DNA from: Shigella phage sb1
Reading direction: 5' to 3' (one strand)
Sequence record: PQ666539
Length of the DNA: 64,000 nt
Positions 18,316 through 20,298 of this stretch are shown in pieces. The stretch's first letter is position 1. Every line of letters begins with the position of its first letter. The translations under genes and the position numbers were made by a program. The notes below the pieces were generated by a model. The model was not told the DNA's origin. It did no database searches and saw nothing but the letters and a program-made list of their open reading frames with translations.

Positions 18316-20298
18316 ATGGCAAATACCCCTGTAAATTATCAATTAACAAGAACAGCAAATGCTATTCCCGAGATATTCGTCGGGGGTACATTTGCTGAAA
18401 TAAAACAAAACCTCATTTAATGGCTTAATGGCCAAAATGAATTTTTGGATTATGATTTTGAAGGCTCAAGATTAAACGTTCTGTGTGACATTTTAGCTTA
18501 TAATACATTGTACATTCAGCAGTTTGGTAATGCTGCCTTGTATGAAAGCTTTATGCGTACTGCTAATTTACGTAGTTCAGTAGTTCAATCTGCACAAGAT
18601 AATGGATATTTACCTACTTCAAAATCAGCTGCTCAAACTGAAATTATGCTAAATTGTACAGATGCATTGAATAGAAATTACATTACTATTCCTCGCGGTA
18701 CTCGCTTTTTAGCATATGCAAAGGATACTTCCGTTAATCCTTACAACTTTGTATCTACCGAAGATGTTATTGCTATTCGTGATAAAAATAACCAATATTT
18801 TCCACGTTTAAAATTGGCCCAGGGACGTATAGTAAGAACTGAAATCATTTATGATAAATTAACACCTATTATCATTTATGACAAAAATATAGATAGAAAC
18901 CAAGTTAAACTATACGTTGATGTAGCAGAATGGATTAACTGGACAAGAAAGTCAATGGTTCATGCTGGTTCTACATCAACAATTTACTACATGCGTGAAA
19001 CTATTGATGGAAATACTGAGTTTTATTTTGGTGAAGGTGAGATTTCTGTTAATGCTGCAGAAGGAGCATTGACTTCTAATTATATTGGGGGTCTTAAACC
19101 TACCCAGAACTCTACGATTGTTATTGAGTACATCAGTACTAACGGTGCAGATGCGAATGGCGCAGTCGGATTTTCATATGCAGATACATTAACAAATATA
19201 ACTGTCATCAACATTAATGAAAATCCAAACGATGACCCAGATTTTGTTGGGGCAGATGGCGGCGGTGATCCAGAAGATATTGAACGTATTCGTGAATTGG
19301 GTACTATTAAACGCGAGACCCAGCAACGCTGCGTAACTGCTACTGACTATGATACATTCGTTTCAGAGAGATTTGGTTCTATTATTCAAGCAGTTAAGAC
19401 TTTCACTGATTCTACTAAACCTGGTTATGCATTTATTGCCGCTAAACCTAAATCAGGACTATATTTAACTACTGTACAGCGCGAAGATATTAAAAATTAT
19501 CTCAAAGACTATAATTTAGCTCCTATTACGCCATCAATTATTTCTCCTAATTACCTTTTTATTAAGACTAATTTAAAAGTCACATATGCTTTAAATAAGC
19601 TGCAAGAATCCGAACAGTGGCTCGAAGGTCAAATAATTGATAAAATTGATCGCTATTATACCGAAGATGTAGAAATTTTTAACTCATCTTTCGCTAAATC
19701 TAAGATGTTGACATATGTAGATGATGCAGATCATTCTATCATTGGTTCATCAGCGACAATTCAAATTGTTCGTGAAGTACAAAACTTCTATAAAACGCCT
19801 GAAGCAGGTATTAAATACAATAATCAAATAAAAGATCGTTCTATGGAATCTAATACGTTTTCATTTAATTCTGGACGAAAGGTTGTAAATCCTGATACTG
19901 GTTTAGAAGAAGATGTATTATATGACGTTCGCATAGTATCAACAGACCGAAATTCTAAAGGAATTGGTAAAGTTATTATTGGTCAATTTGCTTCTGGCGA
20001 TGTTACAGAAAATAAAAACATTCAACCATATTCAGGAAACGATTTTAACAAATTAGCAAATTCTGATGGACGCGACAAATACTATGTTATCGGTGAAATA
20101 AATTATCCAGCTGATATGATTTATTGGAATATCGCTAAAATTAATTTAACATCCGAAAAATTTGAAGTTCAGACCATTGAATTATATTCTGACCCAACCG
20201 ATGATGTTATCTTTACTCGCGATGGTTCACTGATTGTATTTGAAAATGACTTACGTCCACAATACTTAACTATCGATTTGGAGCCTATATCACAATGA
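18316..20298 (+). CDS. 6: gp6 baseplate wedge, interrupted by in-frame TAA at 18418-18420
   Basis: MANTPVNYQLTRTANAIPEIF... matches T4 gp6 N-terminus; 661 codons in one frame. Confidence 0.9.

Follow-up and report, generated by a model that had tools for sequence, protein, structure and literature searches.

The window, by which we mean the whole 64-kb stretch of DNA that was analysed, is part of a Tequatrovirus (T4-like) genome and extends from regB/vs to alt, taking in a tRNA cluster and the genes for baseplate, neck, terminase, tail and head. The closest relatives were UGKSEcP2, Ec_YwIITB1, Killian and PBM-1 (about 97% identity to the window), while T4 was about 92-95% identical. The gene 6 homologue is flanked by gene 5.4 (PAAR protein) and gene 7, as is the gene for T4 gp6. 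The following features were found at the locus:

18306..18309, plus strand: AGGA, the Shine-Dalgarno sequence, 6 nt before the gene 6 ATG at 18316 (read from the sequence; the same in T4T)
18316..20298, plus strand: homologue of gene 6, which encodes the baseplate wedge protein gp6; 660 codons and a terminator, with a break at codon 35 (tblastn, Pfam)
18418..18420, plus strand: in-frame TAA where the relatives have GAA (Glu35), by a G>T change at 18418
18445..20298, plus strand: mechanical open reading frame of 617 aa with a TTG start (ORF list), not a real gene start

The frame from the ATG at 18316 to the terminator at 20296-20298 comprised 661 codons, and codon 35 was TAA. Both the stop and the codon total had been given in the original prediction, which also held that the sequence on either side of the TAA matches gp6. 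Alignment to T4T, along the lines of one of the checks that had been proposed, bore this out: in the 185 nt flanking the TAA the sole difference was one base, giving GAA in T4T and TAA in the window. When 50,697 phage records were searched with an 81-nt query containing the TAA, at least 500 Tequatrovirus records matched; the 500 reported were all in the 95-99% identity band and none of them was identical, and each of the 30 that were detailed had one mismatch. An exact 31-mer with the TAA had no match in the viral, metagenome and genome contig collections. At the protein level, the best 120 gp6 clusters from a database of 5.8 billion sequences were all 660-662 aa long and all carried Glu35 (120/120), and the N-terminal 45 residues were identical in 115 of these 120.

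Over residues 1-660, the translated gene 6 homologue shared 98.3% identity with gp6 of UGKSEcP2, and the five gp6 Pfam domains were present in order (PF21379, PF21515, PF21387, PF21871, PF21472). Residues 1-145 differed at one position from the gp6 chains of the T4 baseplate structures 5hx2, 5iv5 and 5iv7. The stop at codon 35 falls within the helical domain PF21379, which occupies residues 25-98 of intact gp6 and was complete in an intact orthologue (P0077). In the homologue from XM1, the N-terminal helix-turn-helix makes the (gp6)2-gp7 (gp6-like/gp7-like) core bundle of the baseplate wedge (PMC10457771). The TAA is a true break in a highly conserved gene and not a chance break in an open reading frame.

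The 617-aa frame downstream of the stop had been called an artefact, and the orthologues agreed. The TTG at 18445 lies 8 codons 3' of the stop and is the sole in-frame start after the TAA. The 20 nt before it (TTAATGGCCAAAATGAATTT) contained none of the Shine-Dalgarno-like motifs GGAG, GAGG and AGGA, and the 617-aa product lacked the first 20 profile positions of PF21379 (positions 21-74 only). Since the upstream ATG is the start of all 120 best orthologues, not one of which has the 617-aa length, the frame is a product of the ORF-calling rule.

Premature stops and mutation spectrum across the window

To count stops, the annotated genes of UGKSEcP2 were translated and aligned to the window with tblastn. 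With the one in gene 6, there were 27 premature in-frame stops in 25 genes (19 TAA, 5 TGA and 3 TAG), replacing Glu, Gly, Ser, Tyr, Leu and Cys, and at all 27 positions the relatives had sense codons. The other stops and one frameshift are given below.

3072..3074, minus strand: TGA in the denV homologue, Cys107 (TGC>TGA)
6039..6041, minus strand: TGA in the e.5 homologue, Gly66 (GGA>TGA)
6353..6355, minus strand: TAA in the e.6 homologue, Glu173
7753..7755, minus strand: TAA in the e.8 homologue, Tyr4 (TAC>TAA)
9066..9068, minus strand: TAG in a 157-aa hypothetical gene, Tyr34 (TAT>TAG), T>G, outside the G:C>T:A class
12247..12249, minus strand: TAA in gp57A, Glu71
13504..13506, minus strand: TAG in gp3, Ser83 (TCG>TAG)
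17212..17214, plus strand: TAA in gp5, Glu486
25107..25109, plus strand: TAA in gp9, Glu218
26189..26191, plus strand: TAA in gp10, Ser290 (TCA>TAA)
28276..28277, plus strand: 1-nt deletion (CCC>CC, AAAAACCCAAAAA>AAAAACCAAAAA), a frameshift in gene 12 compared with all four relatives
33858..33860, plus strand: TAA in gp16, Glu153
34975..34977, plus strand: TGA in gp17, Gly366
35461..35463, plus strand: TAA in gp17, Glu528
36125..36127, plus strand: TAA in gp18, Glu128
42042..42044, plus strand: TAA in gp22, Ser25
42312..42314, plus strand: TAA in gp22, Glu115
43617..43619, plus strand: TAA in the major capsid protein gp23, Leu274 (TTA>TAA), T>A, outside the G:C>T:A class
51075..51077, plus strand: TAA in uvsW.1, Glu11
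52141..52143, minus strand: TAA in uvsY, Glu8
53609..53611, plus strand: TAA in gp51, Glu102
54634..54636, plus strand: TGA in gp27, Gly194
55075..55077, plus strand: TAA in gp27, Glu341
55897..55899, plus strand: TGA in gp29, Gly65
57684..57686, plus strand: TAA in gp48, Tyr67 (TAC>TAA)
59586..59588, minus strand: TAA in the alt.-3 homologue, Ser93
61449..61451, minus strand: TAG in an alt-like ADP-ribosyltransferase (alt paralogue), Glu178 (GAG>TAG)

The deletion splits gene 12 (short tail fibre, 27783-29329) into the open reading frames 27783..28292 and 28340..29329. A phage with the sequence as written cannot be viable, and no propagating lineage is possible because 27 stops and a frameshift lie in essential genes. 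Changes of the G:C>T:A class accounted for 25 of the 27 stops. The two exceptions may reflect a few errors of other types, or natural pseudogenisation of an accessory gene.

We then compared the window with UGKSEcP2, Ec_YwIITB1, Killian and T4T, scoring a substitution as private where at least three of the four relatives agreed and the window differed (56,587 eligible sites). The window had 665 private substitutions, and 233 of them (35%; 121 G>T and 112 C>A) were G:C>T:A. When this alignment was scored with each relative in turn as focal genome, the G:C>T:A share was 6.6%, 6.3%, 8.3% and 7.2%, and the other substitution classes in the window stood at control proportions. A share of 35% against 6.3-8.3% corresponds to about 200 excess G:C>T:A events and hence to changes at about 1% of G:C pairs.

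The coding effects of these changes were compared with a random expectation drawn from all possible changes of the given class in the same genes. Among the G:C>T:A changes 178 were missense (81%), 25 nonsense (11%) and 16 synonymous (7%), against an expectation of 79, 12 and 9%. The A:T>G:C changes, on the other hand, comprised 28 missense (15%), no nonsense and 156 synonymous (85%), where 59, 0 and 41% were expected. From these splits, the A:T>G:C changes resemble ordinary divergence under purifying selection, and the G:C>T:A changes resemble substitutions drawn at random and left unfiltered. Private G:C>A:T changes (44 missense, 85 synonymous, 0 nonsense) had a share not above the controls; a second unselected component in this class is possible. 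The codons from which the 25 G:C>T:A stops arose also matched a random draw:

GAA: 13 observed, 11.7 expected
GGA: 4 observed, 4.5 expected
TCA: 3 observed, 3.9 expected
GAG: 1 observed, 1.8 expected
TAC: 2 observed, 1.7 expected
TCG: 1 observed, 0.8 expected
TGC: 1 observed, 0.6 expected

The G:C>T:A changes showed no preference for trinucleotide context (rate 0.6-1.5% over all 16 contexts), no strand bias and no clustering; they were spread evenly along the window with near-exponential spacing. G>T and C>A were randomly interleaved, also at spacings below 50 nt (runs test z = -0.44).

Gene 6 itself carried nine private G>T or C>A changes (seven missense, one nonsense and one synonymous). The window gp6 differed at 11 residues from each of the four closest database proteins, and the eight differences common to all four (E35*, L59I, A92S, T113N, G203V, A254S, Q361K and P557Q) were all G>T or C>A. 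There are 81 sites in gene 6 at which a G:C>T:A change creates a stop, for which the window rate predicts 0.81 stops and a probability of 0.56 for at least one. The stop is thus what the G:C>T:A process is expected to yield and is not specific to gene 6.

Finally, we looked up window proteins as exact matches among about 15 billion public proteins. As written, none of ten (gp8, gp13, gp14, gp24, gp54, gp53, gp19, gp21, UvsW and truncated gp5) had a match, and the exact look-up of the window gp7 gave none either. The set was then repeated with only the private G:C>T:A changes undone, and with gp6 and full-length gp5 in place of UvsW and truncated gp5. After this reversion five of ten (gp53, gp13, gp14, gp19 and gp54) were exact known Tequatrovirus proteins, present on 10 to 919 contigs, and gp6 came to within about 3 residues of the gp6 of Shfl2 and KNP5.

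Origin of the stop and of the G:C>T:A changes

It is very unlikely that the gene 6 stop has a functional explanation. A genuine ochre mutation could persist in a viable phage through a suppressor host, low-level readthrough, or re-initiation at TTG 18445 to give an N-terminally truncated gp6. Conversion of GAA to TAA by one base is the classical route to an ochre mutant, and the in-frame TTG 8 codons 3' of the stop would offer a restart. However, the window had 26 more stops in 24 other genes, with TAA, TGA and TAG all represented, and none of its ten tRNA genes (9561-10388) had a suppressor anticodon. The stop also stands in the UAA-U context, which is a strong terminator in E. coli, no Shine-Dalgarno sequence precedes the TTG, and the break cuts PF21379, whose equivalent helix-turn-helix in XM1 forms the wedge core bundle. 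Amber and ochre mutants of T4 gene 6 are conditional-lethal, with an isolated mutation in an intact genome, and are grown on suppressor hosts. The window resembled them in the one-base change and the early gene 6 stop, which if real would abolish wedge assembly, but it differed in the additional stops and the frameshift and in being a natural relative of T4 rather than T4. We consider a viable ochre mutant highly improbable, and a functional split of gp6, with the stop inside PF21379, found no support. Reassignment of a stop codon or programmed readthrough, as in recoded phages, would account for in-frame stops in many genes, and as in those phages the affected genes were mostly late. In recoded phages, however, a single stop codon (TAG or TGA) is read in frame as one amino acid by a phage suppressor tRNA, and relatives share the recoding. 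The window, by contrast, used all three stop codons in place of six amino acids, each reached by a single base change; TAA, TGA and TAG also ended its genes normally (54, 12 and 5 times), none of its 10 tRNAs was a suppressor, no relative had these stops, and their pattern equalled a random draw from G:C>T:A changes. The mutation spectrum refutes recoding, to which we give almost no weight.

The G:C>T:A changes could, alternatively, be physically real. The sequenced DNA would then stem from heavily oxidised or mutagenised phage molecules, whose lesions became fixed when they were copied once or a few times with no selection for viability, and the record would be that of dead-end genomes and not a base-calling artefact. 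The pure G:C>T:A spectrum, the lack of selection and the uniform spread are all consistent with this, and fit fixation in a tube or in a cell alike. Against it, a propagating lineage is precluded by the 27 stops and the frameshift in essential genes, and the interleaving of G>T and C>A even below 50 nt is a misfit with the copying of one damaged strand or one long molecule. The load is a further difficulty, as about 1% of G:C pairs mutated exceeds by far that of any known in vivo mutator. We regard physically real damage as unlikely. In vivo hypermutation of the phage DNA, for example by a guanine-targeting or oxidative host defence with the record representing its dead products, is extremely improbable; if true, it would mean an attack that peppers T4-like genomes with G>T changes as they replicate.

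These observations are best explained by a sequence record that is damaged or faulty, and the G:C>T:A layer is very probably of non-biological origin. About 200 excess G:C>T:A substitutions would have been laid over a normal, naturally diverged Tequatrovirus genome and never filtered by selection, and the TAA at 18418-18420 would be one event of this window-wide layer. Whichever of the origins given below applies, the data show that the changes were never exposed to selection, so they do not belong to the genome of a propagating phage. It is almost certain that the actual phage has GAA (Glu35) and encodes an ordinary gp6 of 660 aa.

For the physical cause, we infer two candidate origins. Guanine oxidation may have introduced 8-oxoG-type G>T and C>A errors into a low-depth consensus, or the record may have been corrupted in another way during sample preparation, assembly or processing, computational alteration included. 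Guanine oxidation has a layer of G:C>T:A changes alone as its signature: 8-oxoG pairs with A on copying, giving G>T or C>A, and this is a known artefact of library preparation (PMC3616734). The artefact described by Costello et al. (2013) consists of C>A and G>T errors from DNA shearing and library preparation, with a preference for CCG>CAG, a low allele fraction and a read-orientation bias (G>T in read 1, C>A in read 2) (PMC3616734). The layer in the window resembled this artefact in being G:C>T:A only, unselected, scattered and without counterpart in relatives. However, its CCG rate (0.0072) was not enriched relative to the 0.006-0.015 over the 16 contexts, and the changes stand in the consensus. 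With the changes in the consensus and no CCG enrichment, the artefact would have required very low depth or a template or library with unusual damage; otherwise the record would have to be corrupted in some other way. Other error types were not visibly elevated and there was about one frameshift, an error profile unusually clean for a low-depth assembly, which counts against a faulty record.

Two further sources of error were also considered. Systematic errors of nanopore sequencing or at modified cytosines were rejected, because there was no k-mer context and there were almost no indels. The random order in which G>T and C>A follow one another speaks against damage to a single strand or single molecule.

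The gene 6 stop is a sequence-level artefact or part of an unselected damage layer, and there is nothing new in it. Its main value is as a quality control warning for other findings in the window, where in-frame stops, odd residues and "split genes" should be judged against a random G:C>T:A background of about 1%. The warning concerns gp5, gp9, gp10, gp16, gp17, gp18, gp22, gp23, gp27, gp29, gp48 and others, and other findings of broken genes in 1-64000 probably have the same G:C>T:A cause; the layer alone is enough to fragment the ORF tracks of the window. The private-substitution spectrum, the split into missense, nonsense and synonymous changes, and the reversion of the suspect class together make a quick general test of record damage against biology.

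Relatives and variable regions of the window

Two contigs that were reached via the closest gp6 proteins, L010 and L011, had 97% and 93% DNA identity to the window, respectively. In the variable wac and alt regions, the best megablast identity was 96-98%. One lineage-specific 32-mer had no match in viral contigs, and a second matched only distant T4-like contigs that were 67-80% identical over the aligned regions. A 32-mer in gp23 (43824-43855), with six differences from the four close relatives, was found exactly in five IMG/VR contigs. These came from far more distant T4-like phages, about 76-80% identical over the gp23 region, which points to a short patch acquired by recombination in the capsid gene, or to convergence of the sequence.

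A 218-aa open reading frame with no Pfam match (37724-38380) lay between genes 18 and 19. A gene of similar size and placement is annotated in Ec_YwIITB1 (L005, 38313-38930) and is absent from UGKSEcP2, Killian and T4, and the frame looks like a mobile or accessory insertion. A 157-aa open reading frame on the minus strand (2493-2966), adjoining the denV homologue, matched Pfam DUF7412 end to end (E = 3.6e-94); a gene is annotated at the equivalent position in Ec_YwIITB1 and none in T4.

The tRNA cluster at 9561-10388 comprised 10 genes, for Arg, Asn, Tyr, Met, Thr, Ser, Pro, Gly, Leu and Gln, of which those for Asn, Tyr and Met are missing in T4. The window had no tRNA-His, which UGKSEcP2 and Ec_YwIITB1 have between Arg and Asn. 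Gene 1 (dNMP kinase, 12459-13172) had a 12-nt in-frame deletion at 12861, giving a product of 237 aa compared with 241 aa in the relatives. The 237-aa version was also called on the Logan contig L011 (SRR31516476), so the deletion probably reflects natural variation and not an error.
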